A stretch of DNA of 64,000 nucleotides from contig CAYMIL010000002.1 in the NCBI GenBank assembly GCA_964390845.1, forward strand, positions 33,885-97,884, in the 5' to 3' direction. The first letter of the stretch is position 1. Each line of letters opens with the position of its first letter. Source of the stretch: an uncultured Candidatus Saccharibacteria bacterium (GTDB lineage Bacteria > Patescibacteriota > Minisyncoccia > Phycocordibacterales > CALRHW01). Positions 29,209 through 61,380 of this stretch are shown here, in pieces. Both the position numbers and the translations under genes were made by a program. The notes under the pieces were generated by a model. That model was given only the letters and a program-made list of their open reading frames with translations. It searched no databases and was not told the origin of the DNA.

Positions 29209-29268
29209 GTGCAGAAATGTACCTCGCGCCGTCGCGCTCGTAAGTCTCCGCTCAACACATTTCTGCAC
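29209..29268. promoter_or_regulatory. structured rpsG-fusA intercistronic element (12-bp stem GTGCAGAAATGT/ACATTTCTGCAC, 36-nt loop)
   Basis: Perfect inverted repeat seen in the 115-nt spacer between rpsG and fusA. Confidence 0.4.
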
Positions 29269-29292
29269 ACGGAAAACAGATAGATACTAAGT

Positions 29293-29763: not shown

Positions 29764-29780
29764 AGTGAGATAAATTCGGC

Positions 29781-30191: not shown

Positions 30192-30287
30192 GCCTTGTGG
30201 GCGAAATTAAAACCGCAACGCGGAATACGGGATACTTTAATATGTAACGCTAAAAAATGCAAGTGCCGAGCGCAAGACCCTGCTCCC

Positions 30288-34224: not shown

Positions 34225-34701
34225 ATGAAAAAGAATTCATCGGGGTTATCTATCGTGGAAATTATCGTGAGTGTCGCCATCCTCTCTCTATTTGCAACAA
34301 TTAGTTTGTATTCTTTTTTTGCACTAAGCCGTCGTAGTGCGCTCGACACAAGTGCAACCATCGTAAAATCTGTACTCACTGAAGCGCGTTCAAAAACACT
34401 CGCGGGAGAAAGTGGCACTCGATACGGTGTGTATTTTTCCTCCTCATCAGTCACCACCTTCTCTGGAACGTCATACACAGCAAACGCATCGGGAAATGTT
34501 GTTAGCCCCCTTCAATCAGGTGTCACCATTTCAAATGTCTCACTCGCTGGAGGTGGCGCATGCTCAAGCTCATCATGCAACATCATCTTCAACCGTCTCA
34601 CTGGCGAGACATCACTTGCAGGGACAAGCACCGTAACACTTCGCGGGCAAGATGGCGCAACAACGAGCGTTACAATTTTCGGCACAGGTATTGTAGAATA
34701 A
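34225..34701 (+). CDS. type IV pilin-like / pseudopilin (prepilin N-terminal motif G|LSIVE)
   Basis: MKKNSSG-LSIVEIIVSVAIL: class III signal peptide with Gly at -1 and Glu at +5. Confidence 0.75.
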   Translation: MKKNSSGLSIVEIIVSVAILSLFATISLYSFFALSRRSALDTSATIVKSVLTEARSKTLAGESGTRYGVYFSSSSVTTFSGTSYTANASGNVVSPLQSGVTISNVSLAGGGACSSSSCNIIFNRLTGETSLAGTSTVTLRGQDGATTSVTIFGTGIVE

Positions 34702-34706
34702 CTATC

Positions 34707-35189
34707 ATGAACGCACGCAAAGGTATGGTTCTTGCAGAAGCACTTGTTGGCGCATCCGTGCTGATTGTGTTTATCTCCGCACTCGTGCTTGCGCAACGCA
34801 TCTTTATCGCGCAGTCATCGATGTCTATCGACAAAACACAGTCTGCACTCCTTGCAGAAGAAGGTATCGAGGTTGCAAAGTTTTTGCGTGATGAAAACTG
34901 GGCAAATATCGCCTGCGCAAGCACAACCTGTGGTCCCTACGGCCTCCAGTGGGATACGACGTGGTCAACAACCACATCCGCCGAAATTATCGACGAAAAA
35001 TTTTATCGCACCCTCACTATCGACCGCGTCTGTCGTAACAACAGCACATTTGCCATAGCATCATCATGTTCTGGTGCTGTTACCAACGATCCAAACACCA
35101 AAAAGGTAACCATTTCCGTATCGTGGTCGCGCAACAACGCGACAACAACAAAAACGATGGCGACATATCTCACCAACTTCCATGAATAA
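34707..35189 (+). CDS. type IV pilin-like / pseudopilin (G|MVLAE)
   Basis: MNARKG-MVLAEALVGASVLIV; start trimmed from longer ORF. Confidence 0.7.
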   Translation: MNARKGMVLAEALVGASVLIVFISALVLAQRIFIAQSSMSIDKTQSALLAEEGIEVAKFLRDENWANIACASTTCGPYGLQWDTTWSTTTSAEIIDEKFYRTLTIDRVCRNNSTFAIASSCSGAVTNDPNTKKVTISVSWSRNNATTTKTMATYLTNFHE

Positions 35190-35694
35190 GCACAGAGGAT
35201 TTAGCTTGGCAGAAATGATTGTGTACGTCGCGCTCGTAGCGATGCTCCTCTTTATCGTTATCAACATTCTCATTGTGGGGCTCAACATGTATCGACGCTT
35301 TGATGCGGCGCGCAATGTGCAGGATGCGGCAATTGCTGTAATCGAGCGGGTCGTATCCGAATCTCGCAACGCATCAATGATCAGTGTCGAGGCATCTGGC
35401 GTCGACAGCAGTGGCCAAAACGCTCTCGTTATGTACAACGAAAACGATGCTCGGTTGGCACAATTCACCATTGGCACCGATGGTATCATTCGGCTCTACA
35501 ACAGTAGCGGAAACCTCGTTGGCCCCCTTACTCCAAAGGATGTAACCGCTGCGGGGTCGTATTTCCTCATTGCATCAAGCACTTCTGGTACGCCACTGGC
35601 GCGCGTGATCCTCATTCTTCGTTCAGGCGAAGGAGAGACAGAGCGCACAGAAAATTTTTACACATCTGTCGTGCCTCGCGGTTCATATAAATAA
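35182..35694 (+). CDS. type IV pilin-like / pseudopilin (G|FSLAE)
   Basis: MNKHRG-FSLAEMIVYVALV; 8-nt overlap with upstream pilin (translational coupling). Confidence 0.75.
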   Translation: MNKHRGFSLAEMIVYVALVAMLLFIVINILIVGLNMYRRFDAARNVQDAAIAVIERVVSESRNASMISVEASGVDSSGQNALVMYNENDARLAQFTIGTDGIIRLYNSSGNLVGPLTPKDVTAAGSYFLIASSTSGTPLARVILILRSGEGETERTENFYTSVVPRGSYK

Positions 35695-35699
35695 ACACC

Positions 35700-37718
35700 A
35701 TGCGTTCCCTTTTTAAACACATACACAACACACGCGGAGGATACGTTGTACTCACAGCGGCCCTTTGTTTTATCGCAGTATCACTCACTATTATTTTTGG
35801 TATTGTGTCGCCGGCAATCGCACAGGTAAAAAATTCTTCTCGTTCGTTTGTGTCGCGCGAAAGCTATTTTCTCGCTGAGGCAGGAGTCGAAGATGCAGTG
35901 TACCAGTTCAAAAACGGATACACCCCAACATCAGGACAGCTCAGTATCAATGGCGAAACTGTAGCTGTCACCATAGCAACAGGTAACGGCTCGACCACCA
36001 TCACCGCGACAGGTGATAAAAACAACACCGAGCGAAAGGTAGAAGCTGAGCTCGTTGGCGACACCGGTGCTATTTTCAACAATGCCGTATTCTCTGGTAA
36101 TGGTGGTTTTAGCATCACCGGCGGATCACAGATTATCGGTAGCGTATATTCCAACGGCGACATCATCGGTGGTGGTGGTTCTTCGATTTCACAAAATGCT
36201 GTCTCTGCAACGCTTGTAAGCCCATCAGTCAACCAATCAAACGGCACCGTCTTCCCTCCTGCGTACGGCATTAGCTTTGGAAGCAACGTTGCCCCACAAG
36301 ATGTCGCGCAAAGTTTCCAAGTTTCCACATCAACAGCGATAACCGCGATCCGTCTGTATATCAAAAAGAGCACAAGCGGATGGATGAACGACATCACCTT
36401 GCGCATCATGAGCAACAACTCGGGCACAGGAAACCCAGGCACAACAAGTATCGCATCCGTTAATATTCCCGCATCGCAGATTTCTACATCATACGGTTAC
36501 CTCGCAGTAACCCTTCCAACAGCGCCCACACTCACACCAGGTACAACATACTGGATCGTCCTTGATACAGGCTCAACCTACGGAGCGTCATACACCATTG
36601 GCGCGGCGAGTGCGTCATACGCAAATGGCCTCGCGAAAGTTGGAACATACAATAGTAGCTGGTCCAACACATCTCCATCTGGACTCGATGCATATTTCGA
36701 CATTGTTGTCGGTGGCGACCCGGGCGTCATTTCTGGCTTAAGTATTGGCGGTGATGCGTGGGCGTACAATGTTGCAAACTCGTCTATTTCAGGAACAGCG
36801 TATTGCCAGATTGGCTCCGGCAACAACAAGTCCTGCAACACGACGCGGACAGACCCAAGCCCTGTCGGCTTCCCCATCTCCGACACAAATGTCACAACAT
36901 GGAAAGCAGGTGTTACCTCAGCAATTTCTCCGGCAATTACTGGCGGATGGACATACACAGGCAATCTCACTATCGGATACCAGGGCACCACAACTTCAAC
37001 ACTCAAGAAAGTAAACGGAAATCTTACGCTCTCTTGCTCAAGCGCTCCCGCAACATTTGGAGATTTGTGGGTTACCGGAAACGTGACGATTGGTAGTGGT
37101 TGTATCTTTAACGCAAATCAGGTAAAAATCGATGGCTCATTCAACGCGGGTTCTGGCCAAGGCAACATCGGCGCGCTTGAGGTGGTGGGAAATATTAGCA
37201 TCACAAGCGGAAACACATTGACCGCTGGGCCGATTAAAGTCGGTGGCGATCTCACTGTCGGCTCCACAGCGCTTGTCCTCAAGGGCACCCTGTGGACCGT
37301 CGGTAAAATTACTGTACAAAGCGGAGCGGCTGTGAGACTCCACTCATCCTACGGTACTCAACCAGGTGTCATCGTTGTCGACGGACGTGTCGACCTCGGA
37401 GGCGGCGGATCATTCTCTGGTTCTGGACAAACAGGAAGCTACCCTGTGCTTGTATCCCTCAGTACGTGTCCGACAGGTACCGGCTGTAGTAGCAACAACG
37501 CTATCCAAATGAGTGGAGGCGCGGGAGCAATTCTCCTTATTGCACAAAACGGAACAGTGAGCATGACCGGTGGAACAGCGGCGAAGGCGCTTATCGGAAA
37601 ACAAGTGGTTCTTTCAAACGGTGCTCGAGTAACATACGACAACAACCTCATCAATCTTGATTTCCAAAGCGGTCCTGCAGATGGCTATGACATCGGACTC
37701 TGGAAAGAAGTTGAGTAG
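35700..37718 (+). CDS. large pilus-associated protein (672 aa): N-terminal TM/pilin-like anchor lacking Glu+5, beta-helix-like Gly/Thr-rich repeats
   Basis: Follows three pilins; repeats such as GNVTIGSGCIFNANQVKIDGSFNAGSGQGNIGALEVVGNISITSGN suggest a parallel beta-helix. Confidence 0.5.
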   Translation: MRSLFKHIHNTRGGYVVLTAALCFIAVSLTIIFGIVSPAIAQVKNSSRSFVSRESYFLAEAGVEDAVYQFKNGYTPTSGQLSINGETVAVTIATGNGSTTITATGDKNNTERKVEAELVGDTGAIFNNAVFSGNGGFSITGGSQIIGSVYSNGDIIGGGGSSISQNAVSATLVSPSVNQSNGTVFPPAYGISFGSNVAPQDVAQSFQVSTSTAITAIRLYIKKSTSGWMNDITLRIMSNNSGTGNPGTTSIASVNIPASQISTSYGYLAVTLPTAPTLTPGTTYWIVLDTGSTYGASYTIGAASASYANGLAKVGTYNSSWSNTSPSGLDAYFDIVVGGDPGVISGLSIGGDAWAYNVANSSISGTAYCQIGSGNNKSCNTTRTDPSPVGFPISDTNVTTWKAGVTSAISPAITGGWTYTGNLTIGYQGTTTSTLKKVNGNLTLSCSSAPATFGDLWVTGNVTIGSGCIFNANQVKIDGSFNAGSGQGNIGALEVVGNISITSGNTLTAGPIKVGGDLTVGSTALVLKGTLWTVGKITVQSGAAVRLHSSYGTQPGVIVVDGRVDLGGGGSFSGSGQTGSYPVLVSLSTCPTGTGCSSNNAIQMSGGAGAILLIAQNGTVSMTGGTAAKALIGKQVVLSNGARVTYDNNLINLDFQSGPADGYDIGLWKEVE

Positions 37719-42567: not shown

Positions 42568-43788
42568 CTAGATAGCGTCAACAAGAGAATACATCGGTCC
42601 AAGCATAGAGATTGCAAAGAATCCGACCGCGATACCAATAAACACCATAAGAAACGGCTCAATGATTGTCGACATATCTTTTGTCTTTTGGTCGACCTCA
42701 TCCTCGTAAAACTGAGCAACGTTTGTAAACATTTCAGACAATTTTCCAGTTTCTTCGCCAATACTCGTCATTTCACCCACAAACACGGGGTACAGTTTCT
42801 CGTGCGCAAGGAAGATGCCCGACATCGGCTCTCCTTTCTCGACACTACTTTCTGCCTCTGCAAGCACTGTTTTGTAATAAGAGTTTTGAATCACATCTTT
42901 TGTAATACGAATGGCTACCAGCACATCAACACCTGAGGACAGGAGGGAGGAGAGGGTGCGCGCTGTTCGAGCGGCGTTTACGTTTTTTACAATTGGTGAA
43001 ACAAGTGGAATATGAAGGACGATTGTATCAAGTGTGCGCTTACCTGAAGCAGTACGCGCAAAGAGATATACACCACACGCAAGCGCAATGAGCGAGCCGA
43101 GGGAAATTAAAATATTGTTTTTCAAAAAATCAGAGAGGAAGATTACGATGCGCGTCGACAGCGGAAGTGTAAGCTTAAGCTCGCGAAACGTTGCGGTGAG
43201 TGTCGGCACAAGATACACAAGCATAAGAACACCGATAACAAGCATAATGGAAAGTACGATACCAGGATAAATGAGCGCGCCGCGCACCTTTTTCGTCAGC
43301 AAATATGCCTTCTCAAGCTGGTCAGCAACTGTTTTAAGGGCGATAGTAAGCGTACCACTCTGCTCTCCAGACTTTACCATCGAGACGAAAAGTGTCGAAA
43401 ATGCCGACGGATGCTTTACCATTGCCTCACTAAGCTCACTTCCCTTGCTAATATCTGCCGAGAGGTTTGCGATGACACTCTTAAGTTTCTTATTCTTTGC
43501 TTGACGTTCCATCACAGAAAGAGCACGAGCCATCGGCAAACCCGCGGTAATCATCGTGCCAAGATTGCGCGCAAACAAAATACGGTCAATTGTTTTGACA
43601 CTTCCACCCTGAAGGCTCGCGAAAGCACTCGCAAGAAACCCTGAACGCTGTTTTTTTTCTTCTGCAAAGGTAACCGTTCCACCCTCCCCCTTTATCTGAC
43701 TATACAGCGCAGATTTATTTGCGGCCTCTTGCTCACCTTCATATCGCTCACCCGACGCATTAATAGCTTTAAATGTAAAAATTGGCAT
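42568..43788 (-). CDS. pilC: type IV pilus assembly platform protein PilC / GspF family
   Basis: Two GspF repeats, three TM helices; directly downstream of pilB. Confidence 0.85.
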   Translation of the reverse strand: MPIFTFKAINASGERYEGEQEAANKSALYSQIKGEGGTVTFAEEKKQRSGFLASAFASLQGGSVKTIDRILFARNLGTMITAGLPMARALSVMERQAKNKKLKSVIANLSADISKGSELSEAMVKHPSAFSTLFVSMVKSGEQSGTLTIALKTVADQLEKAYLLTKKVRGALIYPGIVLSIMLVIGVLMLVYLVPTLTATFRELKLTLPLSTRIVIFLSDFLKNNILISLGSLIALACGVYLFARTASGKRTLDTIVLHIPLVSPIVKNVNAARTARTLSSLLSSGVDVLVAIRITKDVIQNSYYKTVLAEAESSVEKGEPMSGIFLAHEKLYPVFVGEMTSIGEETGKLSEMFTNVAQFYEDEVDQKTKDMSTIIEPFLMVFIGIAVGFFAISMLGPMYSLVDAI

Positions 43789-43791
43789 AGA

Positions 43792-45576
43792 TTATTCTGA
43801 AATTACACGGAGAATTTCTTCGATTGTTGTGTGGCCTTGTACCGCCTTAAAGATGCCATCTTCAATCATTGTGAGCATTCCTTCTGTTTTTGCCTGCTTC
43901 TCAATGTCTTTATCTGTTTTCCCCTGCATCACAAGCTCTTTAATAGCAGGAGAAATTTTTAATATTTCATAAATGCCGACGCGACCACTAAACGCTTCTT
44001 CCTCAGAAGCACCCGCCTTTGGCCGATAAAACGGCACTTTGTCCCATGACACCTTACCCTCAACCACCTGCTCTTCTTTGAGGAACTTGAGTACACGATC
44101 GAGATCGACCGTTTTTTTGAGAGTTTCAATTTCAGCATCTGATAAAAAGTATTTTTCTTTTTTATCTGTGAGCTTTCGAACAAGACGTTGGGCAATGACG
44201 ATGTTGACTGTCGACACAATAAGAAACGGCTCAACCTTCATGTCGATAAGACGTGGGATAGCGCCCGCAGCGGAGTTGGTGTGCAATGTGGAAAGCACGA
44301 GGTGGCCCGTGAGCGACGCGTTGATCGCAAGCGACGCTGTTTCACCGTCTCGAATTTCTCCCACCATAATAATATCCGGATCCTGACGCACCAAGGTGCG
44401 CAACCCCGCAGAAAACGTGAGGCCAATTTCTGGCTTCACCTGTGTTTGGTTAATCCGATTCATCTGATACTCTACAGGATCTTCGATAGTGGAAATATTT
44501 ACATCCGGCGTGTTGAGAATATCGAGCAAGGTGTAGAGGGTTGTTGTTTTTCCAGAACCAGTCGGACCAGTGGTGAGAATCATACCCGTCGTGAGTTTCA
44601 TTGTGTGGTGAATACGCTCAAGCGCTTCTCCATGGAAGCCAAGCGCTTCCAGCGTAAAGCCTGAGGCTGTCTCACGCAACAAACGCATCACTGTCTTCTC
44701 TCCGTAATAGACAGGGAGTGTCGACACACGAAATGACACCTTTTCATTGTTAACCTCAATTTTGAAACGACCATCTTGAGGAAGGCGCTTCTCATCAAGC
44801 TTCAAATTTGCGAGCACTTTAATACGTGCCGTGATACTCGGCGCAATATTTCTCGGCAATGTCATCGCGTCGTGAAGTAGGCCGTCGATTCGGTAACGGA
44901 CAATCACCTGCTGTTCAAGTGGTTCAATATGAATATCGGAAGCATTTTGCAAAATAGCATGCTTGAGCAGTGTGTCGACAATACGCACAACAGGCACGTC
45001 CTCTGCGAGTTTCTTGAGGTCACTTTCAGACACATCCTCTCCCCCCTCATGTTCTTCTACTGTCTTGAGTGAGACCGCATCTTTTTGAATCAAATCGCCA
45101 AATTCTGCCTTGAGACTTTTCTGATACTGCAACAACGCCCCCTTCATCGACTCATTATCTGTAAGGCGGGGCAAAATTTTCAAACCTACTTTCTTTTTTA
45201 CGAAATCAATCGCCGTAAGATCGGCAATATCGAGCATCGCCACCTCAAGCGCGCCAGCAATTTTTTTAAAGGCAACAATGTTGTGGTTGCGAGCAATCGG
45301 CTCTGGCACAAGCGAGAGTACTTCAAAGTCGAGCTTCTGCCCTTTCAAGTCGACAAACGGTATGCCGAGCACGTGCGCGTGAATCCGGCGCAAATCGTCC
45401 TCACTAATCTTTCCTCGACTCACGAGAATTTCTCCAACGCTTACGTCGGTTGCCTTCGATTCTTTTTCTGCATCAGCAAAATCGGCTTTTGAGACAAGGC
45501 CTGCGTCAAGAATAAAATCCTTAAATTGTTTTTCTTCAACGTGCATCTGAACGTAGTGTTGACTTAAGTATAACAA
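43792..45576 (-). CDS. pilB: type IV pilus assembly ATPase PilB / GspE (with N-terminal GSPII_E_N domains)
   Basis: Walker A GPTGSGKTTT, Asp box, Walker B, His box; ORF starts TTG at 45576, an ATG (MHVEEK) lies at 45546. Confidence 0.9.
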   Translation of the reverse strand: MLYLSQHYVQMHVEEKQFKDFILDAGLVSKADFADAEKESKATDVSVGEILVSRGKISEDDLRRIHAHVLGIPFVDLKGQKLDFEVLSLVPEPIARNHNIVAFKKIAGALEVAMLDIADLTAIDFVKKKVGLKILPRLTDNESMKGALLQYQKSLKAEFGDLIQKDAVSLKTVEEHEGGEDVSESDLKKLAEDVPVVRIVDTLLKHAILQNASDIHIEPLEQQVIVRYRIDGLLHDAMTLPRNIAPSITARIKVLANLKLDEKRLPQDGRFKIEVNNEKVSFRVSTLPVYYGEKTVMRLLRETASGFTLEALGFHGEALERIHHTMKLTTGMILTTGPTGSGKTTTLYTLLDILNTPDVNISTIEDPVEYQMNRINQTQVKPEIGLTFSAGLRTLVRQDPDIIMVGEIRDGETASLAINASLTGHLVLSTLHTNSAAGAIPRLIDMKVEPFLIVSTVNIVIAQRLVRKLTDKKEKYFLSDAEIETLKKTVDLDRVLKFLKEEQVVEGKVSWDKVPFYRPKAGASEEEAFSGRVGIYEILKISPAIKELVMQGKTDKDIEKQAKTEGMLTMIEDGIFKAVQGHTTIEEILRVISE

Positions 45577-45630
45577 AAAACACTCACCCTGAAGTGGATA
45601 AGTGTCTTTTGTGTTTAGTGAAAAATGAGA

Positions 45631-46635
45631 TTACTCGATTCGAAGCGCCCAACCAAATCGTGTCTCTCCACAATCATAGTCATTACCAGAGCTCAAACAA
45701 CTTGTTGGTGGCACACCTCCGATACTACCGATTGTTGTGCCGCCAGCGTACACGCCCATGTATACATATGGAGTAGCTGTATACATTTCACGGTCTGCTG
45801 TACTGTCTCCTATCTGATCCATTCGTGTAAGGTTCACAAGCCACTTTGCGCTTGCGCCGCCAGGGAGCGTTGGGCCAGCACCGCTGTTGAGCACATCACC
45901 TGCCCATGATGTAGACCATTTTGATCCATCCACACCGATATTATGTCCCGGCTCGTTTCCATACGCCTCCAAGTATCCGAAGGCAAAAGAGATTGTAGCC
46001 CCAACGCCCGTTGTTTGGTTGGTGCCCGTTCCATATGGAAGCATGACTGATCTCCAATCACCCTGACCGCCCGTACCTGTTGCAGTAAAGACCTTTCCGT
46101 TTGAAGGCGTGCCACCTGTTACCTGAAGTGTTCCCGCAACTTTCACGTTGGTTGAAGACTGGGACATGATGGAGTTTGAAAGTGTCGTGCCGTTTGGAGA
46201 AAAGAACGGAATGTAGTTTGTTGTACCAGAGCCACCAATACCACCTGTACCCCCACCTGATGGCCATGTGTCTTTACATACTCCTCGAATACACAATCCT
46301 CCAGCAGTTGCAGAACCTCCGTTGATGTATCCTTCAGTATTAATTTTATAGTTTGGATCATGTGCTACAGTTCCCGCGATAATTGAGCCTGCGGATGCGC
46401 GAAGCGCAACTTCAGGAGCACCTGTACCTATCACGAGTCCACCAATTTTTGTCTGAGAAGCACTGCTCACATTAATCGGCGCATCACATCCGGGGCTACC
46501 TGATGTACATGCCGGTGGCAATGATGACGGCGCAGACCAGTCTGCGCGAAGTGCGCCGATGCCAACGGTGAGCATAAGCGCGAGTACAATCACTTTCACG
46601 CTCTGCAGAATTTCTTGTTTATTTATGATTTTCAT
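45631..46635 (-). CDS. secreted Gly/Thr-rich protein (334 aa), signal peptide
   Basis: N-terminal hydrophobic signal; low-complexity GGTGG tracts; upstream of pilB on same strand. Confidence 0.45.
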   Translation of the reverse strand: MKIINKQEILQSVKVIVLALMLTVGIGALRADWSAPSSLPPACTSGSPGCDAPINVSSASQTKIGGLVIGTGAPEVALRASAGSIIAGTVAHDPNYKINTEGYINGGSATAGGLCIRGVCKDTWPSGGGTGGIGGSGTTNYIPFFSPNGTTLSNSIMSQSSTNVKVAGTLQVTGGTPSNGKVFTATGTGGQGDWRSVMLPYGTGTNQTTGVGATISFAFGYLEAYGNEPGHNIGVDGSKWSTSWAGDVLNSGAGPTLPGGASAKWLVNLTRMDQIGDSTADREMYTATPYVYMGVYAGGTTIGSIGGVPPTSCLSSGNDYDCGETRFGWALRIE

Positions 46636-46675
46636 ACGTTGTTAATTAATCTATTACTATAAGTATACACCACTA

Positions 46676-46993
46676 CTACCTCATCGAGCCCACAGGGCTT
46701 GTCTCTCGAAGAAACTGTGCCTCCTGCTCCGGCGTCAGCGTCGATGAGACGCTTGCGCTCGACTCTGCGCGAAACTGTTTTTCCTGATCAGTAGAGAGTT
46801 GTGAGCCACTTGATGCGCTCGACTCTGCGCGAAAACGGTCCTCCTGACTCATCTCCGGCTCGCGAGAAGAATTGAAGAATGTAAAAATCGCAGCGAGAAC
46901 GATGAGGCACACGATAAACACAACAATCCAACGAGCCTTGTGCTGTGACGGAGGCATCGGAAACGTCTGTTGTGAGGGTGATTGAAATTCCAT
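46676..46993 (-). CDS. small single-pass membrane protein with tandem 20-aa repeat (FRAESSAS...)
   Basis: TM WIVVFIVCLIVLAAIFTFF; 60-bp DNA tandem repeat at 46745-46865. Confidence 0.4.
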   Translation of the reverse strand: MEFQSPSQQTFPMPPSQHKARWIVVFIVCLIVLAAIFTFFNSSREPEMSQEDRFRAESSASSGSQLSTDQEKQFRAESSASVSSTLTPEQEAQFLRETSPVGSMR

Positions 46994-47004
46994 ATGTGTT
47001 GAGA

Positions 47005-49269
47005 TTAAAATTCGTTAATTGATGGACGAACGATAACTGTCGCCTCCGCTTGAGGACAGACCGCAACATTTCCATTTGCGTCGGTTACCGTGAGCTTTCC
47101 GTGCTTAATACCTGTTGTCTGATAAATCTTTGTAACGGAAACACCTGTTCCAGAAAGTCCGTTATCTCCGCTCCACTGGTATGTAAGCGGAGGCACGCCG
47201 CCAGCAACAGTTCCCACCCACGTAAGTGGCGCATTTACCAAATACGGTGGATCATCCTGAAGCTCACACGTTACATCGATAGGAGCGTCTAGTGTCGGAG
47301 CAATCACTTCGACAGTTACAGTAACTGTGCGTGACGTTGCACCACTCACTCCCGTAAAGACCACGTTGTAAATACCCGGCTCTGCATTTGCCCATGCCGC
47401 GATTGTTACTGTTGTTGAACATGTAGGGTTACATGTTTGAGTAGCCCCCGGAATTGAAACCGTAAGAGGAGTATCTTCGGATATGGATGAAGTAATTGTT
47501 ACAGCCTCACTCACACCCGCATCAAGAATTCGAGAGATCTTTGTTGTCTTTTGAGTACCACGGTCGATAGTAAGATACACGGGCATTGCTGAGAGGTGAA
47601 AATCAAACTTCCCTGAAGGCTTTCCATAGGTAACCTTCGGATATCCATCACTCGAAGAATGCGAACCTCCAAAATACAACCACCCAACAACATCACCGCC
47701 CCACGCATATCCAACAATTCGTCCCGTTGCCGCATGGTATGTAAGGCCACGAGTACCGTCAGTAAATCCAGAAGGATATGTTGGTCCTGAGAGACTTATC
47801 CATCCATCCCACCCTGATGTGAGGTCTCCAAGCACCGCCTTTGCCCACCCTTTTATTGTCATACTGTCAGACTGAAGTGTCGCGTTTTGTGTATATGGCT
47901 CAGCAGAAGAAGGAAAACCTGACAAATTTCCAAACTTAATCCAACCGATTGACGGCGACCATGCGTGTCCAGTGATTGTTCCTGGACCACCCATCGTGCC
48001 GCCGTTATTGATAGTCACAGCAAACGGTTTGTTTGTTGATGTTGTTGTCTGACAGTTGGTTGTCGCCGCAGTACCATCGTCTGCAACACCGTCTACAGTA
48101 GCCACGCCGTTCACAATCGGATACGCATCTTCACAGCTGTTCATTTTTACCCACCCAATATTTGAAGACCATGCCCATCCGAAGACATTTCCTGTCTCCG
48201 CTGTACCCGTAAGTACACACAAACCATTTTCTGCAGTATATCCAGATGGACATGTTCGCTCGCACTTTGTTGCCTTGGTACACGAAGCCACAAGACCCCA
48301 CTGTGTTGGCTGTGTTAGCCCAGTGTCGTCACTTGAACACATCGTTGAGAGCGGGTCGTATGATCCATAACACACGTTTGAAGCAATCGGTATACATGCA
48401 CCATTTGAAAGTGTGTAGCCAGCGGAACATGTCGCTTCACACTTTGCTGATGTACACGAAGACACCGCCGCCCATGATGCAGGACTCGTCAATCCAGAAT
48501 CGTCGCCGGAACACATCGTGGAATTTGACGGCTGACTGCCGGAACATGAATACGTTTCAACATCTCCTCCACCGCCATCAGACTGAGTGATTGGAGAAAT
48601 TTCTCTCCACGCGCTCCATGCCTGCATACAATCTTTCCAATTTCTTACTCCAACCCTCAAACTCTGTCCGTAATATGCGTTACCGCCAGTAGTAAGCCCC
48701 GCGACAAGATTCCACGCAGAATGAATGTCACTTCGCGTGTCAGACCACATCGCGTCAGACACTTCGCTAAAACTCTGATTTGCCAAAATAACAGCGACCT
48801 GCTGTGCATCGCCCACACCAGCATCTGGATCACCGGGAATAGTAATGGAGAGGTTGTTTACACCACTTGCAGAATACACATCAGAGAAGCTTGCCGAAAG
48901 GTATGACGGCGCGACAGGTGCTTCTTGAGTACAGACACCGCCCCCGTCGTCGGTACCATCAGAAAGACCGGAGTCGTCGCTCACACCGATATCGCCACCA
49001 CCAAGACTTGGGGGTGTTTGACACGTTCCCGCACCAGAGGTTGTACACGAGCCTGTTGTTCCTGCGCAGTATCCAGACTGACACTGAGCATTTGAACTAC
49101 AGATACCACCATTTCTTGTGTTGTTGTTACATGAAAGCACCTGAGTTCCCGAAACGCCCTGCACGGGTGTTGCTTGAGAAAATAGGAACAGTCCCGACAA
49201 AAGCACCGCGGCAAGCACTGCGAGCGTGACGAGCTGTTTATTGCGCACAATTCCTCGAATATGTTTCAT
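47005..49269 (-). CDS. large secreted protein (about 754 aa): repeated Cys-rich modules, GW motifs, C-terminal PKD-like domain
   Basis: Signal/TM MKHIRGIVRNKQLVTLAVLAAVLLSGLF; two paralogous about 50-aa modules; GWAWSSNIGWVKM / GHAWSPSIGWIKF / GYAWGGDVVGWLYF; PKD-like YQWSGDNGLSG...LTVTDANG. Confidence 0.55.
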   Translation of the reverse strand: MKHIRGIVRNKQLVTLAVLAAVLLSGLFLFSQATPVQGVSGTQVLSCNNNTRNGGICSSNAQCQSGYCAGTTGSCTTSGAGTCQTPPSLGGGDIGVSDDSGLSDGTDDGGGVCTQEAPVAPSYLSASFSDVYSASGVNNLSITIPGDPDAGVGDAQQVAVILANQSFSEVSDAMWSDTRSDIHSAWNLVAGLTTGGNAYYGQSLRVGVRNWKDCMQAWSAWREISPITQSDGGGGDVETYSCSGSQPSNSTMCSGDDSGLTSPASWAAVSSCTSAKCEATCSAGYTLSNGACIPIASNVCYGSYDPLSTMCSSDDTGLTQPTQWGLVASCTKATKCERTCPSGYTAENGLCVLTGTAETGNVFGWAWSSNIGWVKMNSCEDAYPIVNGVATVDGVADDGTAATTNCQTTTSTNKPFAVTINNGGTMGGPGTITGHAWSPSIGWIKFGNLSGFPSSAEPYTQNATLQSDSMTIKGWAKAVLGDLTSGWDGWISLSGPTYPSGFTDGTRGLTYHAATGRIVGYAWGGDVVGWLYFGGSHSSSDGYPKVTYGKPSGKFDFHLSAMPVYLTIDRGTQKTTKISRILDAGVSEAVTITSSISEDTPLTVSIPGATQTCNPTCSTTVTIAAWANAEPGIYNVVFTGVSGATSRTVTVTVEVIAPTLDAPIDVTCELQDDPPYLVNAPLTWVGTVAGGVPPLTYQWSGDNGLSGTGVSVTKIYQTTGIKHGKLTVTDANGNVAVCPQAEATVIVRPSINEF

Positions 49270-50648: not shown

Positions 50649-51173
50649 ATGAATTTGTGGCACGATATTGCTCCAGGAACAGCAGAATCAATTACAACAA
50701 TCGTTGAAATCAACAAGGGTTCAAAAAATAAGTACGAGGTAGACAAGGAAACAGGCCTCATTGCTCTCGACCGCGTCCTACACTCATCCCAAGACTTCCC
50801 TTTTGATTACGGCTTTGTACCGCAGACCCTCTGGGACGACGGCGATCCTGTAGACGTTGTACTCCTCACAACCTATCCCCTCATGCCGGGCATGCTTGTG
50901 CGCGTACGACCCGTCGCCATCATGAACATGACCGACAGTGGGGACTCTGACGCAAAGGTTATTGCTGTTCCCGTCGACGACCCTCGCTGGAATGATGTGC
51001 AAGACCTTGGCGACATCAACAAACACACCATAAAAGAAATCGAACACTTCTACGCAACATACAAAAAGCTCCAAAATAAAGAAGTTGTTGTTCATGGATT
51101 TGAAGGAAAAGATAAAGCAATAGAAGCATTTGCTCGAGGTACCGAGTTGTACAAGCAGAAATATCCAAAGTAA
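50649..51173 (+). CDS. ppa: inorganic pyrophosphatase (family I)
   Basis: DYGFVPQTLWDDGDPVDVVLL signature. Confidence 0.92.
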   Translation: MNLWHDIAPGTAESITTIVEINKGSKNKYEVDKETGLIALDRVLHSSQDFPFDYGFVPQTLWDDGDPVDVVLLTTYPLMPGMLVRVRPVAIMNMTDSGDSDAKVIAVPVDDPRWNDVQDLGDINKHTIKEIEHFYATYKKLQNKEVVVHGFEGKDKAIEAFARGTELYKQKYPK

Positions 51174-51197
51174 GCCATACGCTTATCCTCTACAAAA

Positions 51198-51222
51198 AAC
51201 CCGCCTTGCGCGGGTTTTTTGT
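51198..51222 (+). terminator. rho-independent terminator after ppa
   Basis: ACCCGC cttgc GCGGGT + T6. Confidence 0.6.
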
Positions 51223-51259: not shown

Positions 51260-51880
51260 ATGAAACATGTAATCATTCCTTTGTGCATTATGGCCGTGGT
51301 GTATACAGTAGCACCGCTTCGCGCGGGAGCAATGGAGCCACAGCGCGGGTTTTTTGATGCACGCGTAAAAGTTGCTTCACCAGAAGATACTGAAAAAATG
51401 CGAGCTCTCAAGCAAGCTCCGACAATGAAACCCGAAATGCGGAAAGTGATGCTCGACGGCGCTACAGGCACACCTCGCGCCCTCCTCAACGCTCACCCAC
51501 GCATGATCGAGCGACTTGAGAAAAAGATGGAGACTGTGTCAGACACACAACGCCCAAAAGTTGAGGCACGATTGCAGAAAGCCGAAGATATTCTCACGGC
51601 GCGCATTGAAGCGGCACTTGAGCGATTTTCCGGCATCGTTGAGCGGCTCGAGTCTCGCATTGATACACTCAAAACAAACGGCGTAGATACAAGCGAAGCA
51701 GAAAAGCATCTTGCAGAAGCAAAGAGTGCGATTGATACAGCATCCGCTGGTCTTTCGGGAGATGCTCGCAGTGCAATACAGGAGATGAAATCAAATCTCT
51801 TCACTATCCGACAACACCTCTCAGAGACTATCGCGAGCCTCAAGGCTGGAGTAAACACCTCAGCAGAACCAACTCTTTAA
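51260..51880 (+). CDS. secreted alpha-helical protein (paralog of C-terminal domain of 52214-53368)
   Basis: Signal peptide MKHVIIPLCIMAVVYTVAPLRAGA; RLESRIDTLKTNGVDTSEAEKHLAEAKSAI aligns with RIESRMEKMRSDGISIAAAEVFVERAKTSA of the dockerin protein. Confidence 0.5.
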   Translation: MKHVIIPLCIMAVVYTVAPLRAGAMEPQRGFFDARVKVASPEDTEKMRALKQAPTMKPEMRKVMLDGATGTPRALLNAHPRMIERLEKKMETVSDTQRPKVEARLQKAEDILTARIEAALERFSGIVERLESRIDTLKTNGVDTSEAEKHLAEAKSAIDTASAGLSGDARSAIQEMKSNLFTIRQHLSETIASLKAGVNTSAEPTL

Positions 51881-51900
51881 TCAACTAACATACACACATT

Positions 51901-52203
51901 ATGGAAACACCACACATGCAGTATCAGCCTCAGCAATCTCAGCAGGCACCAACACCAAAGCGCTCAACAACAGGTCCTGTTATTGGCATTGTCGTAGTAC
52001 TTGCAATGATTGTCGTTGGCGTTTTGTACTTCTGGGGCGAGCGTGTTGATACACTCAACAAAAATCGTGAGTTGCTTCAGAAAGGAGCAGACACGCAGGT
52101 TGAGCAACTTCAGACACAAAGCGCGTCAGATGACCTCACTTCTATCGAAGCAGATCTCGACGCAACCGATATCAATGCAATAGACACTGGCATTAGCAAC
52201 TAA
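51901..52203 (+). CDS. small single-pass membrane protein (paralog of 53373-53669)
   Basis: TM GPVIGIVVVLAMIVVGVLYFW; C-terminal SDDLTSIEADLDATD motif shared with paralog SDDIPSIEADLNATS. Confidence 0.5.
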   Translation: METPHMQYQPQQSQQAPTPKRSTTGPVIGIVVVLAMIVVGVLYFWGERVDTLNKNRELLQKGADTQVEQLQTQSASDDLTSIEADLDATDINAIDTGISN

Positions 52204-52213
52204 CGCATACGTC

Positions 52214-53368
52214 ATGATTACCCCGAAGAGATCTTTGCGGACCGTTGGCCTCATCGTACTGGTTGCCGTAGTGTCCTTTGCGCACGTTCCAACGGCACTT
52301 GCGAAGGCGGCATCGACAGAAACAACGAGTGTCCAAACAAACACATCAAACTCCTCAGTCAACACATCGGCAACACAAGCGGTCAGCACAACAAACTCTG
52401 CACCAAGTGCGACACCACAGAAATCAAGTGATCTCAATCACGATGGGTACGTCACAAATGCAGACGTAAATCTCGTACTCAGCAGTTTTGGTACATGCCA
52501 ACTAAGCGCGTCATGCCCGGCAGACATCAACAATGATGGTTCTGTAAACAATGCAGATCTCTCTATTGTTGTAAAAAACGCAAACTCTTCGACTGCGGGT
52601 GGCAATGGTGCACTCACTGGCGGCGGAATCAACAACACCTCAAACACTTCTGTCAGCACGACAGACGGCTCAACAAACTCTTCATCAAACGGCACAACAC
52701 ACACAACATCAAACTCAACAACGAACACCAATACAAACACATCCGGAAACACTTCACCCGTTTCATCAACACAACGCACTGGCGGTTCAACAGGAATAAA
52801 CCCGAACGCGTTTCTTGGAAACCAATCTCAGGTTCCTGCGGTAACACGCCAACTCATTGAGTTTGTCCTCCCTATCCCAAACTACATGCAAAATCCGAGC
52901 ACGCCACGTGTTGTAAATGAGGAAGAAGAGATGAAAGCACGAAGTGCGCGCTCAAGCACTGCTCAACAAAATTTCCAGACGATTCAAGACCGGCTTGAAG
53001 CAGGAACACAGCGTATCGACACACTCATTACACGCATCGAATCTCGCATGGAGAAAATGCGATCGGATGGTATCAGTATTGCCGCGGCTGAAGTGTTTGT
53101 GGAACGAGCAAAAACAAGCGCTGGTGTGGCGCGAGCAAATACCGCAGGACTTGAAGAAGCATTCAACAATGCCCTTGCACAAACAACAGACAACGATGCA
53201 CGCATCGCATTTGAAAGCGTGCGCGCACTCATCGCAAGCGCAAAATCTCAGCTTGAAGGAGCTCGACGAAATCTTCTTGAAGCAGTTCGCATCATGAAAG
53301 CGGCGCAAGAACGTTTTCAACCACAAGTATCGGCTGAGGACAGCGCACTCGAGAGTGAGTTAAACTAA
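52214..53368 (+). CDS. secreted dockerin-domain protein with S/T/N-rich linker and C-terminal alpha-helical domain
   Basis: Signal peptide; duplicated Ca-binding loops DLNHDGYVTNAD and DINNDGSVNNAD spaced 19 aa apart (type I dockerin pattern DxNxDGxVNxxD). Confidence 0.6.
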   Translation: MITPKRSLRTVGLIVLVAVVSFAHVPTALAKAASTETTSVQTNTSNSSVNTSATQAVSTTNSAPSATPQKSSDLNHDGYVTNADVNLVLSSFGTCQLSASCPADINNDGSVNNADLSIVVKNANSSTAGGNGALTGGGINNTSNTSVSTTDGSTNSSSNGTTHTTSNSTTNTNTNTSGNTSPVSSTQRTGGSTGINPNAFLGNQSQVPAVTRQLIEFVLPIPNYMQNPSTPRVVNEEEEMKARSARSSTAQQNFQTIQDRLEAGTQRIDTLITRIESRMEKMRSDGISIAAAEVFVERAKTSAGVARANTAGLEEAFNNALAQTTDNDARIAFESVRALIASAKSQLEGARRNLLEAVRIMKAAQERFQPQVSAEDSALESELN

Positions 53369-53372
53369 ACGC

Positions 53373-53669
53373 ATGCAACCTGAACACCCATACATTCCTG
53401 AAGTTACACCTGTAGAGCTCAAATCTCGCACGCCATTCATCATCATCGTGGCAAGCGGAGTGCTCGCACTTTTGGCGGCTGTGGGCTTTTATTTCTACAT
53501 CACCCGCCCAGTATCCACGACGACACCGGATGTTGTTGTGCCACAAGGCGATAATCAGTTGCATCAATTAGAAAACCAGAGCCTCTCAGATGACATACCG
53601 TCCATTGAGGCAGATCTCAACGCAACCAGCTTCGATGGTATCGATGCAGGTGCCGAAGAACTGAGATAA
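53373..53669 (+). CDS. small single-pass membrane protein (paralog of 51901-52203)
   Basis: TM FIIIVASGVLALLAAVGFYFY; shared C-terminal SIEADL motif. Confidence 0.5.
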   Translation: MQPEHPYIPEVTPVELKSRTPFIIIVASGVLALLAAVGFYFYITRPVSTTTPDVVVPQGDNQLHQLENQSLSDDIPSIEADLNATSFDGIDAGAEELR

Positions 53670-53685
53670 AAACGCAAGGAGAAGC

Positions 53686-53712
53686 AAAAACCCCGCCATC
53701 GCGGGGTTTTTG
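53686..53712 (+). terminator. rho-independent terminator (CCCCGC catc GCGGGG + T5)
   Basis: Seen directly. Confidence 0.6.
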
Positions 53713-53759
53713 CTTGCAAAGAGACGACAATCTCTATACACTGTGAAGCTACAACACAT

Positions 53760-54764
53760 ATGAAAAAAGACAAGCCATATTCAAATATTACAATTTCCCC
53801 CCTCGAACACTCTGAGGTCCTCATTGAGGGAGAAATCACTGCAGAGTATCTTGAGGAAAAGCGTGCGGAAGCACTCAAAAAACTCGTAACCGGAGCAGAA
53901 ATTCCTGGTTTCAGAAAAGGCACGGCCCCTGAACATCTTGTGGTCCGTCACTTTGGCGAATCACGCATTCTCGAAAACGCTGCTCAGGATGTGATTGAAG
54001 CACAGTACTGGGATATTGTCGCGGACAACTCTCTGCGCGCAATCGGCACCCCAGACATCACTATCACCAAACTCGCAGCAGGCAATCCTCTTGGTTTCAA
54101 GATCAAGACAGCAGTCATGCCAGAAGTCACACTTCCGGACTACGAGGCACTTGCACGTAAGGTAAACGCTGAGCCACAAGAAACACTTTCTGTTGATGAC
54201 AAAGAAATCGATAGCGCGCTCGAACAACTCAAAGAGGTGAAAAAGGTAGAAACAATCGACGATGCATTTGCTCAGTCATTGGGAGATTTCAAAACACTCG
54301 ACGAGCTCAAAAGTAAGATCTCAGAAAACATGCTCGCTGAAAAAAACGTACGCGCGAAAGAAAAGCGCAGACTCGCAATTCTTGAGGCAATTCTCGCAGA
54401 GACAACCTTCCCCGTACCTCAGGTTCTCGTAGATTTTGAATTGCAAAAAATGATTGCGCAATTTAAAGATGATGTTGCGCGCGCGGGTCTTGAATATTCT
54501 TCATACCTCAAGCAGATAAACAAAACAGAGGCGGACATTGCAACTGAATGGAAAGAAAGCGCTATCAAACGAGCGCGCACTCAGCTTATCTTCGGAAAAA
54601 TTTCTAAGGACAAACAACTCGTTCCCGACGAAAAAACAATCGAACACGAAGTCGACCACATCATTGAGCACCACAAAGACGCCGATAGGTTCCGCGCGCG
54701 CATGTTTGTAGAAAACATGCTCACCAACGAAAAGGTTCTTGAGTTTCTAGAGAATCAAAAATAG
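53760..54764 (+). CDS. tig: trigger factor (short form, 334 aa, apparently lacking PPIase domain)
   Basis: N-terminal ribosome-binding region with PGFRKGTAP signature (GFRxGxxP). Confidence 0.75.
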   Translation: MKKDKPYSNITISPLEHSEVLIEGEITAEYLEEKRAEALKKLVTGAEIPGFRKGTAPEHLVVRHFGESRILENAAQDVIEAQYWDIVADNSLRAIGTPDITITKLAAGNPLGFKIKTAVMPEVTLPDYEALARKVNAEPQETLSVDDKEIDSALEQLKEVKKVETIDDAFAQSLGDFKTLDELKSKISENMLAEKNVRAKEKRRLAILEAILAETTFPVPQVLVDFELQKMIAQFKDDVARAGLEYSSYLKQINKTEADIATEWKESAIKRARTQLIFGKISKDKQLVPDEKTIEHEVDHIIEHHKDADRFRARMFVENMLTNEKVLEFLENQK

Positions 54765-59900: not shown

Positions 59901-59933
59901 ATGCGTGAATTCTACAGAGACCTAGAAATCTTT

Positions 59934-60006
59934 GGTGCGGGATGGGGGAATCGAACCCCCGACCTCGGTTTGGAAAACCGATATTATACCATTTAACCAA
60001 TCCCGC
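59934..60006 (-). tRNA. tRNA-Gly (anticodon TCC), CCA encoded
   Basis: Cloverleaf folded by hand: acceptor GCGGGAT, anticodon loop TTTCCAA, T-loop TTCGATT. Confidence 0.8.
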
Positions 60007-60043
60007 TTTTGTCGCGCACCTCTGTGCGTCAGACGTCATACTA

Positions 60044-60343
60044 TCACGGCTTTTTCGCGCTCGCAATTTTGAGCACCGCGTCAAAATTGTCCTTTTCAGA
60101 AACCTTATTACGCCGTATAAAACCACATTTCTCACACCGATGTACCAAATCGTACTTCCCCACTATCCCCTCTACCCCGACCGGTTTCATCATTCCCCCG
60201 CACACCTCGAGTCTGTCCCCTGGGTCTTTATCAACGTGCTTACTCCAGAGGCATTGCCGACAATGATTGGTAAAACCAGTGCCCGCATTTTCTGCGCCAC
60301 AATGCTCACATACAAAGTCTTCAACCGTCTTTTTAAACGCCAT
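60044..60343 (-). CDS. RNHCP domain-containing protein (Cys-rich, Zn-ribbon-like)
   Basis: FVCEHCGAENAGTGFTNHCRQCLWSKHVDKDPGDR matches the RNHCP motif; CxxC pairs. Confidence 0.6.
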   Translation of the reverse strand: MAFKKTVEDFVCEHCGAENAGTGFTNHCRQCLWSKHVDKDPGDRLEVCGGMMKPVGVEGIVGKYDLVHRCEKCGFIRRNKVSEKDNFDAVLKIASAKKP

Positions 60344-60365
60344 AGCCTTTGGCTTTACGCCTATA

Positions 60366-60440
60366 TGGTCGGGGCGCCGGGATTCGAACCCGGAGTCACT
60401 TGATCCCAAGTCAAGCATGTTACCGTTACACCACGCCCCG
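60366..60440 (-). tRNA. tRNA-Pro (anticodon TGG), CCA encoded
   Basis: Acceptor CGGGGCG, anticodon loop CTTGGGA, T-loop TTCGAAT. Confidence 0.8.
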
Positions 60441-60508
60441 AAAAACCAATGAACCATATACTAGCACAGAGACTCGAAATTCAAAAATGTTTGAGAAAAA
60501 AGGCTGTA

Positions 60509-60889
60509 TTAAAGGATATTAATGTGTTCTAAAAGACGTACGCGCCCTACACTCGCTTGGGTATCAAGCCCGACAACAATGCCATCTATCTGAAAAGGTG
60601 TTTCATGTGGAACACCAGACTTTAGGAGAAACATCTGCACGGTCTTTGCTACCTTGTTGATTTTTCTAGTGTGCATATTATCCTCTCCTCTCATATAGCT
60701 TTCACGTGAAACAGTTTTAACCTCAACAAAGTGTATAATCCCCTGCTTTTTGGCCACAATATCTATTTCCCCACATTTTTCACGGAAATTTCTCGCTAGT
60801 ATCGAAAAACCATGTTTCATGAGAAACATAACGGCTATTTCTTCACCCAAAGCACCTGTCTGTATATTTTTTGGCCTTTTTTCGTGCAT
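60509..60889 (-). CDS. yraN: YraN family (UPF0102) predicted endonuclease
   Basis: GALGEEIAVMFL...GEIDIVA...VEVK motifs of the PD-(D/E)xK YraN family. Confidence 0.75.
   Translation of the reverse strand: MHEKRPKNIQTGALGEEIAVMFLMKHGFSILARNFREKCGEIDIVAKKQGIIHFVEVKTVSRESYMRGEDNMHTRKINKVAKTVQMFLLKSGVPHETPFQIDGIVVGLDTQASVGRVRLLEHINIL
60695..60714. repeat. 20-nt motif TATAGCTTTCACGTGAAACA (contains 12-bp palindrome TTTCACGTGAAA), copy inside yraN
   Basis: Seen directly. Confidence 0.5.
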
Positions 60890-60918
60890 TTTGTGTGTTT
60901 CATGAATAACATTGCTTC

Positions 60919-60938
60919 TATAGTTTCACGTGAAACAT
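60919..60938. repeat. 20-nt motif TATAGTTTCACGTGAAACA (14-bp perfect palindrome GTTTCACGTGAAAC), copy 35-47 nt upstream of yraN start
   Basis: Seen directly. Confidence 0.5.
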
Positions 60939-61156
60939 ATATTTGAGCAAAGTGACAAAAAATCCCTTATCTAAGCCATTTTTTGGCCAAAAGACACTTC
61001 TAACAGACAGTTAAAATAGTGTCTTTAATGCACATATCCCCATAGTTATCCCCAGTTTTCCACACTTTTTGGGACAACGTCAGGGTCATTTGTCGCTAAA
61101 AAGCGAGTATAAAGACATTAGTCCCTAATACGTCCGAGAAGGCAGAAGAGAAGAAG

Positions 61157-61230
61157 TGGTGCGGGTAGGGGGAATCGAACCCCCGTCTCGTCCTTGGCAA
61201 GGACGTATTCTACCACTAAACCATACCCGC
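61157..61230 (-). tRNA. tRNA-Gly (anticodon GCC), CCA encoded
   Basis: Acceptor GCGGGTA, anticodon loop TTGCCAA, T-loop TTCGATT. Confidence 0.8.
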
Positions 61231-61308
61231 ATTCATGAAACCCTAAAGAAACAATAACGAATTATACTGCAGGATCATGTCGTTGCACAATCCAGCCCGC
61301 TGTACGGG

Positions 61309-61380
61309 TGCTCTCGGAGGGATTCGAACCCCCAACAACGGTTCCGAAGACCGGTATGATATCCATTTCACCACGAGAGC
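61309..61380 (-). tRNA. tRNA-Arg (anticodon TCG), 3' CCA not encoded (ACCC)
   Basis: Acceptor GCTCTCG/CGAGAGC, D-loop with GG, anticodon loop CTTCGGA, T-loop TTCGAAT; one C-U mismatch at top of anticodon stem. Confidence 0.6.

Follow-up and report, generated by a model that had tools for sequence, protein, structure and literature searches.

Type I dockerins (PF00404) are known from cellulosomal enzymes, such as the family-48 glycoside hydrolase in chain B of 2y3n and Xyn10B and CelS of Clostridium thermocellum, in which 22-residue segments are duplicated and each calcium loop (DxNxDGxxxxxD) is followed by a helix. Non-cellulosomal dockerins are reportedly widespread. In the Candidate Phyla Radiation (CPR), the dockerin-bearing envelope protein SEML1_0315 is essential in Southlakia epibionticum, where targeting of host glycans has been speculated (PMC10633639), and cohesin and dockerin proteins are expressed by Ca. 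Shapirobacterales (bioRxiv 10.1101/2021.08.21.457207). Here, a dockerin locus was analyzed in a stretch of 64,000 nucleotides (nt) (contig CAYMIL010000002.1, positions 33,885 to 97,884, assembly GCA_964390845.1), referred to throughout as the window. Between ppa and tig, the window holds four genes designated A1, B1, A2 and B2; A1 and A2 encode exported helical proteins, B1 and B2 encode small single-pass membrane proteins, and A2 carries the dockerin. The novelty is not the dockerin as such, it is the presence of a dockerin on one copy of an undescribed gene pair (A-B) that is near-universal in Parcubacteria.

The locus was compared with described systems. A2 is like the cellulosomal type I dockerins in its duplicated segments with calcium loop and helix, but its window is without carbohydrate-active enzyme (CAZyme), scaffoldin or cohesin, and the linker between its two segments holds two Cys; the locus is not a cellulosome. 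The CPR dockerin envelope proteins of Southlakia and Shapirobacterales are, like A2, exported and non-enzymatic, without cellulosome context, and a role in surface interaction has been proposed for them. However, they come from other CPR classes, whereas the A2 dockerin is carried by a class-wide bundle family paired with B. PspA-PspB/PspC and LiaH-LiaI resemble A-B in gene order and size only (a helical protein of ~200-260 amino acids (aa), then a bitopic protein of ~100 aa). PspA and LiaH are cytoplasmic members of PF04012, whereas A has a cleavable signal peptide and PF04012 (PspA/IM30) gave 0 matches in 52 A members, making this an analogy and not a membership. Trypanosoma HpHbR, Plasmodium RH5/RBP2b, Streptococcus Fap1 NR-alpha and Borrelia FbpC are elongated three-helix bundles with 5-15% identity to A; this is a generic fold, and homology is unsupported.

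Few uncultivated bacteria are as abundant as Parcubacteria, most of which are believed to rely on other cells. The construction of their envelope and their means of contacting partners are largely obscure, and A-B represents two newly defined families that are near-universal in the class. The dockerin-tagged A2 is an experimental handle, and defined targets for experiment are offered by the tail peptide of B and by the RxESR face of A.

The A-B gene pair across Parcubacteria

Word-index searches with single proteins returned three matches for B1 and only the protein itself for A1; as these searches were near empty, profiles were needed. The two distant B homologues obtained from the single-sequence search shared this chromosomal position, each with a gene for a helical protein (212-254 aa) ahead of it. 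The A profile recovered 95 Parcubacteria proteins (e.g. from Zambryskibacteria), all 'hypothetical' or unnamed, just one of which had a Pfam domain in the precomputed tables; this entry, EzrA, is in keeping with coiled-coil noise. An exhaustive hidden Markov model (HMM) search with the B profile gave 2265 cluster representatives (50% identity) at E ≤ 1e-3 and 607 at E ≤ 1e-10, nearly all with a length of 75-155 aa.

For gene order, one genome per GTDB species was scanned with the B pattern. A total of 148 loci were confirmed, and 79 were assessable for the adjacency of A and B. Every open reading frame (ORF) of these loci was scored with the A and B HMMs and with NusA, Ppa, Tig, RsmE, ClpP and RNase Y of the window. 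The best 80 of the 148 loci were all from Parcubacteria/Paceibacteria (Zambryski-, Taylor-, Kaiser-, Campbell-, Wolfe- and Nomurabacteria, Minisyncoccia), and the closest relatives of the window carry the label Parcubacteria group bacteria. The order NusA-(Ppa)-A-B-(Tig)-(RsmE)-ClpP-RNaseY (rny) recurred at nearly all loci. A was found directly 5' of B in 74 of the 79 assessable species-level genomes (median gap = 22 nt), and the pair was nearly always single-copy and without a dockerin. The A-B-A-B arrangement was found in this genome only, and three loci had an extra motif-less B-like gene. Terminator-like hairpins were counted upstream of A at 35/79 loci and downstream of B at 52/79 (a descriptive count, without a null model); hairpin and T-run sites beside A-B would fit with a separate A-B transcript.

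A-B is a vertically inherited pair in fixed synteny, and is read here as an envelope module specific to Parcubacteria/Paceibacteria. A mobile cassette was also considered, and rejected on the fixed synteny. An earlier reading of the window from its letters alone (the sequence-only reading) had envisaged a CPR cell, which agrees with the Parcubacteria assignment, and had proposed an undescribed cell-surface system. The latter stands in part: both families are without relatives in Pfam, NCBIfam and PDB, but, with the pair in 74/79 genomes, the unit cannot be called a self-contained cassette of this locus alone, and the quartet proved not to be conserved in related genomes. Because the pair is nearly always single and dockerin-free and the quartet is unique, docking by the dockerin would be a lineage-specific elaboration (this genome and that of locus L017), not the core function of the module.

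Some loci departed from the usual content. At L005 (5173-7167) and L006 (1645-3639), a 664-aa membrane H+-pyrophosphatase (PF03030) occupied the ppa slot, with the other synteny intact. L076 (JBEBJM010000072.1) is a 3.2-kb contig in a 'Nitrospira sp.' metagenome-assembled genome with Parcubacteria NusA-Ppa-A-B, and was probably mis-binned. Many third-party annotation (TPA) assemblies titled 'uncultured Candidatus Saccharibacteria' (loci with CAY and CAZ prefixes) had the same Parcubacteria-type synteny, and this title looks like a placeholder label.

The two protein families, the dockerin of A2 and their ancestry

The A-family features were found in both A1 and A2: a signal peptide, the bundle motif R-[IL]-E-S-R-[IL] (RLESRI and RIESRM in A1/A2) and a B gene directly downstream. 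BLASTP aligned A1 with A2 at 30% identity across 53 aa (E 5e-7), and an A-family HMM built without A2 gave 1e-32 for A1 and 7e-20 for A2. AlphaFold2 modeled A1 (52-sequence alignment) with a mean predicted local distance difference test (pLDDT) score of 80, and of >90 across the antiparallel bundle. Across the family, near-invariant positions were R129, E131, S132, R133, A154, R170, H184 and L187. In nearly all A proteins, the N-terminus reads as a Sec/signal peptidase I-type signal peptide, in which a positively charged n-region and a hydrophobic core precede an AxA-type site, and a Ser/Thr-rich C-terminal tail is frequent. Export of A is further supported by the dockerin, an extracellular module, on A2 and on the L017 A. 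The median isoelectric point (pI) was 9.5, with ~1/4 of members acidic, and in a typical member the first bundle helix reaches 81 residues (AlphaFold2). A is without a Pfam or NCBIfam family and without a PDB sequence relative. Foldseek against PDB returned nothing significant, profile searches of PDB sequences gave no match below E 0.06, and NCBIfam, PADLOC and per-member Pfam scans gave coiled-coil or transmembrane (TM) noise only. OmpH/Skp (PF03938) matched 2/52 A members (best E 0.0048) amid many coiled-coil noise matches, and A was not assigned to that family.

B1 and B2 were 39% identical across 96 aa (BLASTP, E 9e-15), with QS-SDD-x-SIEADL-xAT in common. In an alignment of 44 B members, G25, P26, G40, Y43, F44, W45, I82, E83, D85, L86 and T89 were near-invariant. 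The TM helix consensus (GPxIG...GGLYFWGxR) is unusually conserved, and the C-terminal tail (~62 residues, net charge ~-12) closes with SDDxxSIEADLxATDxxxLDxEL. The N-tail is variable and mildly acidic, with a median of 26 residues and 50-99 residues in some members. Both features, TM consensus (GPVIGIVV...GVLYFWGER) and tail motif (QSASDDLTSIEADLDATD), were present in B1. In B2, the tail motif (QSLSDDIPSIEADLNATS) was intact (motif-only HMM 1.9e-14) and the TM segment divergent, with the family consensus GP...GGLYFW lost (TPFIIIV...VGFYFY). The B family had no match in Pfam, NCBIfam or PDB sequences.

The B motif consensus ...EADLNATD... (e.g. window 52150-52170 and 53610-53630) includes D-x-N-x-T, which fits the extended bacterial N-glycosylation sequon D/E-x-N-x-S/T. 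A helix N-cap role would be more likely than glycosylation, because the Asn is often substituted (D in B1; K, E, R and S elsewhere) while the Thr is near-invariant. At Kaiserbacteria-like loci L069, L080 and L089 (also L057 and L072), there was an extra or replacement B-like gene with a GALYFWGA TM segment and 'QLPLIPGD', without SIEADL; these could represent a separate B' subfamily, or else a gene that has been split. The C-termini of Zambryskibacteria-like A proteins (L005, L008, L050 and L036), e.g. SSVEADLETDDSLEQ, resemble the B motif SIEADLDATD.

Pfam Dockerin_1 (PF00404; gathering score 22.9) matched the A2 dockerin in two stretches, at 28.5 bits and E 1.8e-6. Its loops of 12 residues each are 31 residues apart; DLNHDGYVTNAD is followed by the helix VNLVLSSFG, and DINNDGSVNNAD by the helix LSIVVKNAN. 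The arrangement is that of tandem dockerin segments, each an EF-hand-like loop (D1, N/D3, D5, D12) plus helix. The segment aligned along the solved dockerin 2y3n_B (E 1.4e-5), and with the NCBIfam GC-type dockerin it reached 15.5 bits, a sub-threshold score (cutoff 29) and weak resemblance. The two-Cys linker between the segments (GTCQLSASCPAD) is common to L017. The domain is a genuine member of Dockerin_1, as shown by its HMM score, the anatomy of its loops and its matches in PDB. No CAZyme domain was found in A2 (Pfam), and the dockerin is joined to an A-family bundle instead.

These results uphold all of the observations in the sequence-only reading, which had related the core of A1 to the C-terminal domain of A2 (BLASTP and A-family HMM), had taken B1 and B2 for paralogous small TM proteins with a common C-terminal motif, and had described the whole as a duplicated module of secreted helical protein and small membrane protein, for which the pairwise alignments were significant. 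The dockerin in A2 and the Ser/Thr/Asn linker had likewise been recognized; the former passes the Pfam threshold, and the latter can be read from the translation.

No other gene of the neighborhood evolves as fast as A. Mean p-distances across 45 genomes were 0.76 for A, 0.63 for B, 0.31 for NusA and 0.27 for ClpP. The three closest genomes (those of the window, L011 and L017) were approximately equidistant (identities: NusA 87-90%, Tig 55-60%, B ~50% and A ~30%). L017 has a single A-B pair, in which A bears a double dockerin (two modules, Pfam 50.9 bits). The A2 dockerin aligned to the second L017 module, both inter-segment Cys included, the closest relative of the A2 helical domain was the L017 A, and the B2 tail resembled that of the L017 B. 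B1 was closest to the L011 B (53%), and the L011 A is without a dockerin. The nearest counterparts of the two pairs lie in different relatives, and A1-B1 and A2-B2 are therefore old paralogues, or one pair was exchanged between relatives. A recent tandem duplication was rejected (B1/B2 only 39% identical, each pair nearer a different relative). The fusion of dockerin and A probably had one origin in this clade, and would be homologous in the window genome and L017. A metagenome scan seeded with A2 and the L017 A returned generic dockerin loops only (0/8 loci with A or B).

Proposed joint action of A and B and competing explanations

Our preferred reading, which is tentative and held with somewhat less than even confidence, is that A is an exported three-helix-bundle stalk and a surface partner of B, and that its second copy was turned into a dockerin-presenting adaptor. 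A and B would act jointly on the outside of the membrane, where B (N-in, C-out) would be the anchor, with its conserved tail engaging A, and B-anchored A would be a fast-evolving helical stalk displayed on the cell. One variant of A in this clade would have had its charged N-terminal helix swapped for a dockerin on a long Ser/Thr/Asn spacer, and this dockerin-A may plug calcium-dependently into a cohesin-like partner, either elsewhere on its own cell or on another cell. Both pair types, plain (A1-B1) and dockerin-bearing (A2-B2), are retained in this genome. Since A is exported, a B tail that is outside and engages A is the simplest arrangement.

The near-universal adjacency and co-orientation of A and B speak for joint action, and the size of the families, the export and fast evolution of A and the existence of two pair types are also in keeping with this reading. 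Coupling of the two genes was assessed by co-occurrence. The B motif was present in 77/83 B genes where A was present, and it was lost or degenerate in 4/5 genomes truly without A (L039, L057, L061 and L072), with L058 keeping a degenerate copy. The Fisher test of A loss and B motif gave p ~1e-3, a value that included L075, a contig-edge locus that is without A only because it starts at B, and that is not corrected for phylogeny. B2, with its TM consensus decayed and its tail motif kept, was also listed as evidence of A-B coupling.

Several results weigh against this reading or are neutral to it. No direct test of A-B contact, among those run, was positive. AlphaFold2 of A-linker-B as a single chain (the P0100 pseudo-fusion, with four B sequences in the alignment) gave a pLDDT of 43-55 for the B motif and no confident tail placement. 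Charges of A and the B tail covaried positively (rho = +0.41), the opposite of compensation, which looks like a shared compositional trend. By mirror-tree/partial Mantel analysis, the residual correlation of A-B (0.22-0.27) was below that of the B-Tig control (0.47). P0100 (L093 325-1329), the only candidate natural A-B fusion, was rejected as evidence of a Rosetta-stone kind or of topology, as its DNA has an in-frame stop between the genes, translated as Q in the collection. The neighbors of A-B are housekeeping genes, compatible with a non-adhesive housekeeping role. The positive-inside count for B (K+R 1.26 on the N-side vs. 1.54 on the C-side) slightly favors C-in; B topology is thus ambiguous by this rule, and the conserved tail could be cytoplasmic. 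No Cohesin (PF00963) match was found on the called genes at window 4000-62000 (Pfam tables), in agreement with the sequence-only reading, which saw no cohesin in view, and a rescan of nine unannotated window proteins at E ≤ 0.1 also gave no match. As a separate point on the protein collection, pseudo-fusions such as P0100 (gene-caller read-through) can mislead Rosetta-stone reasoning.

If B is instead N-out/C-in, its acidic tail would lie in the cytoplasm as a docking peptide of some housekeeping machine, be it for division, secretion or proteostasis, and A would be merely co-transcribed or would touch B only at its short external N-tail or TM segment. We consider this unlikely. It gains slight support from the positive-inside count, and is in keeping with neighbors tig, clpP, nusA and rny, the high B-Tig residual distance correlation, and a TM helix conserved far above the need of a passive anchor, which suggests an intramembrane partner. 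However, the C-terminal motif of B tends to be lost along with A, a pattern most readily explained by a common compartment for the two, and A is an exported protein. Some members have N-tails of 50-99 residues, which is long for translocation of a signal-less N-tail, and the TM helix has its Trp and Tyr grouped toward the C-terminal end, a placing that is commoner at the outer interface. Should A-B be a housekeeping membrane factor, the pair would still be a class-defining unknown. Improbable, too, is attachment or docking to a host or partner cell as the core role of the module as a whole, which follows the sequence-only reading, with A an adhesin, B its anchor and the dockerin copy the most explicit form. 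A is exported and evolves faster than every neighboring gene, a dockerin-bearing A is found in two genomes of the clade, and dockerin-domain envelope proteins are reportedly essential in an epibiotic Saccharibacterium, with speculated host-glycan targeting (PMC10633639), all of which would suit attachment. Yet the pair is at one fixed housekeeping locus, single-copy and dockerin-free in nearly all genomes, A is without a recognizable adhesin or lectin domain, and any exposed structural protein may also evolve fast.

An A that serves as an extracytoplasmic Skp/OmpH-like holdase or chaperone, tethered by B and complementing cytoplasmic tig and clpP, is very improbable. The median pI of A, its all-helical and exported nature, the weak OmpH matches in 2/52 members and the adjoining tig and clpP are what such a role would lead one to see, but these matches are at noise level (best E 0.005) among other coiled-coil families, ~1/4 of A proteins are acidic, a divergence of 0.76 is atypical of a chaperone, and the dockerin fusion is hard to rationalize. 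Chance or annotation error as the source of the four ORFs or of the dockerin is effectively ruled out; the absence of database names is the only point in favor, whereas dozens of genomes conserve both families, in sequence as well as in gene order and position, and the dockerin is above the Pfam curated threshold and matches solved dockerins. A broader form of the preferred stalk-and-anchor reading is possible, though doubtful: A-B may be a Parcubacteria-wide surface-display scaffold, with the stalk N-terminus as a swappable presentation site that would hold a charged helix in most lineages, and a dockerin with a possibly glycosylated spacer here and in L017, the pair having been duplicated and re-tooled in this genome into a calcium-dependent docking adaptor. 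If true, this would be a symbiont-specific display system for host or partner contact, without counterpart in studied bacteria, and a surface scaffold of this kind would give a marker of, and an entry point to, the Parcubacteria cell surface.

Gene layout, unit boundaries and the wider window

Features of the four-gene unit and its immediate neighbors are listed below. The four genes are co-oriented, with intergenic gaps of 20, 10 and 4 nt (A1/B1/A2/B2), and public gene calls on the source, a 212-kb metagenome scaffold (ENA ERZ28655916, WANG18-1_SAMN08389278 scaffold_6), matched all four ORFs. Each of A1, B1, A2 and B2 was a singleton at 90% identity clustering, and a scan of the window for further A or B copies found none beyond the four genes.

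Features of the A-B locus (positions are those of the window; residues are those of the respective protein).
Feature	Position	Strand	Description and basis
ppa, inorganic pyrophosphatase	50649-51173	+	PF00719; upstream neighbor, syntenic in most related loci
Intrinsic terminator hairpin 3' of ppa	51192-51222	+	Upstream unit boundary; A-tract, GC stem, T-tract
A1	51260-51880	+	206 aa exported helical protein; ORF; identical public gene call
A1 signal peptide	51260-51331	+	~Residues 1-24 (predicted site after AGA, before M)
A1 three-helix bundle	51551-51862	+	Residues 98-201; conserved, with family motif R-L-E-S-R-I
B1	51901-52203	+	100 aa single-pass membrane protein; ORF; B-family profile search
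B1 TM segment	51973-52035	+	Residues 25-45
B1 acidic tail motif	52117-52191	+	Residues 73-97
A2	52214-53368	+	384 aa dockerin-bearing A paralogue; ORF; Pfam Dockerin_1; A-family HMM
A2 signal peptide	52214-52303	+	~Residues 1-30, then a Ser/Thr-rich spacer
A2 dockerin	52427-52588	+	Residues 72-125
A2 Ser/Thr/Asn/Gly linker	52589-52828	+	Residues 126-205 (~80 residues), directly after the dockerin
A2 A-family helical domain	52919-53308	+	~Residues 236-365, then an acidic tail
B2	53373-53669	+	98 aa divergent B paralogue; BLASTP vs. B1; motif-only HMM
B2 TM segment	53433-53501	+	Residues 21-43
B2 C-terminal motif	53577-53651	+	Residues 69-93
Intrinsic terminator hairpin 3' of B2	53682-53715	+	Downstream unit boundary, 45 nt ahead of tig; A-tract, GC stem, T-tract
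tig, trigger factor	53760-54764	+	PF05697 and PF05698 (Trigger_N/C); downstream neighbor, syntenic in most related loci

As first described from the letters, the four-gene unit between ppa and tig is bounded by terminators, which RNA folding resolved as two strong hairpins. The hairpin 3' of ppa had a folding energy of -18.8 kcal/mol (z = -6.28) and that 3' of B2 of -25.4 kcal/mol (z = -6.34), and 0/200 shuffles equaled either. A consensus terminator scan detected neither of them, probably because the T-run pairs with the upstream A-run within the stem and leaves no free T tail. The symmetric A-tract/T-tract form of both terminators suggests that bidirectional action is possible.

Type IV pilus-type machinery is encoded nearby at window 42568-49269 (-), with T2SSF at 42568-43788 and a T2SSE/MshEN ATPase at 43792-45576. 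After these come genes for two unannotated proteins (334 aa and 105 aa) and, at 47005-49269, for a 754-aa protein whose C-terminus carries a PKD domain. At window 34225-37718 (+), three small genes (34225-35694), two of which have prepilin N-methylation motifs, are followed by a gene for a 672-aa protein without a Pfam match. A T2SSE gene was also found 5' of nusA at L010. Window 59933-61380 (-) carries four clustered genes for tRNAs (Gly-TCC, Pro-TGG, Gly-GCC and Arg-TCG). Window 12000-30200 holds a large ribosomal-protein/secY/adk/map block and the fusA-rpsG-rpsL region, a typical core-genome context, within which a gene for a 327-aa PG_binding_1 protein is flanked by the genes of two GTP_EFTU-domain elongation factors.

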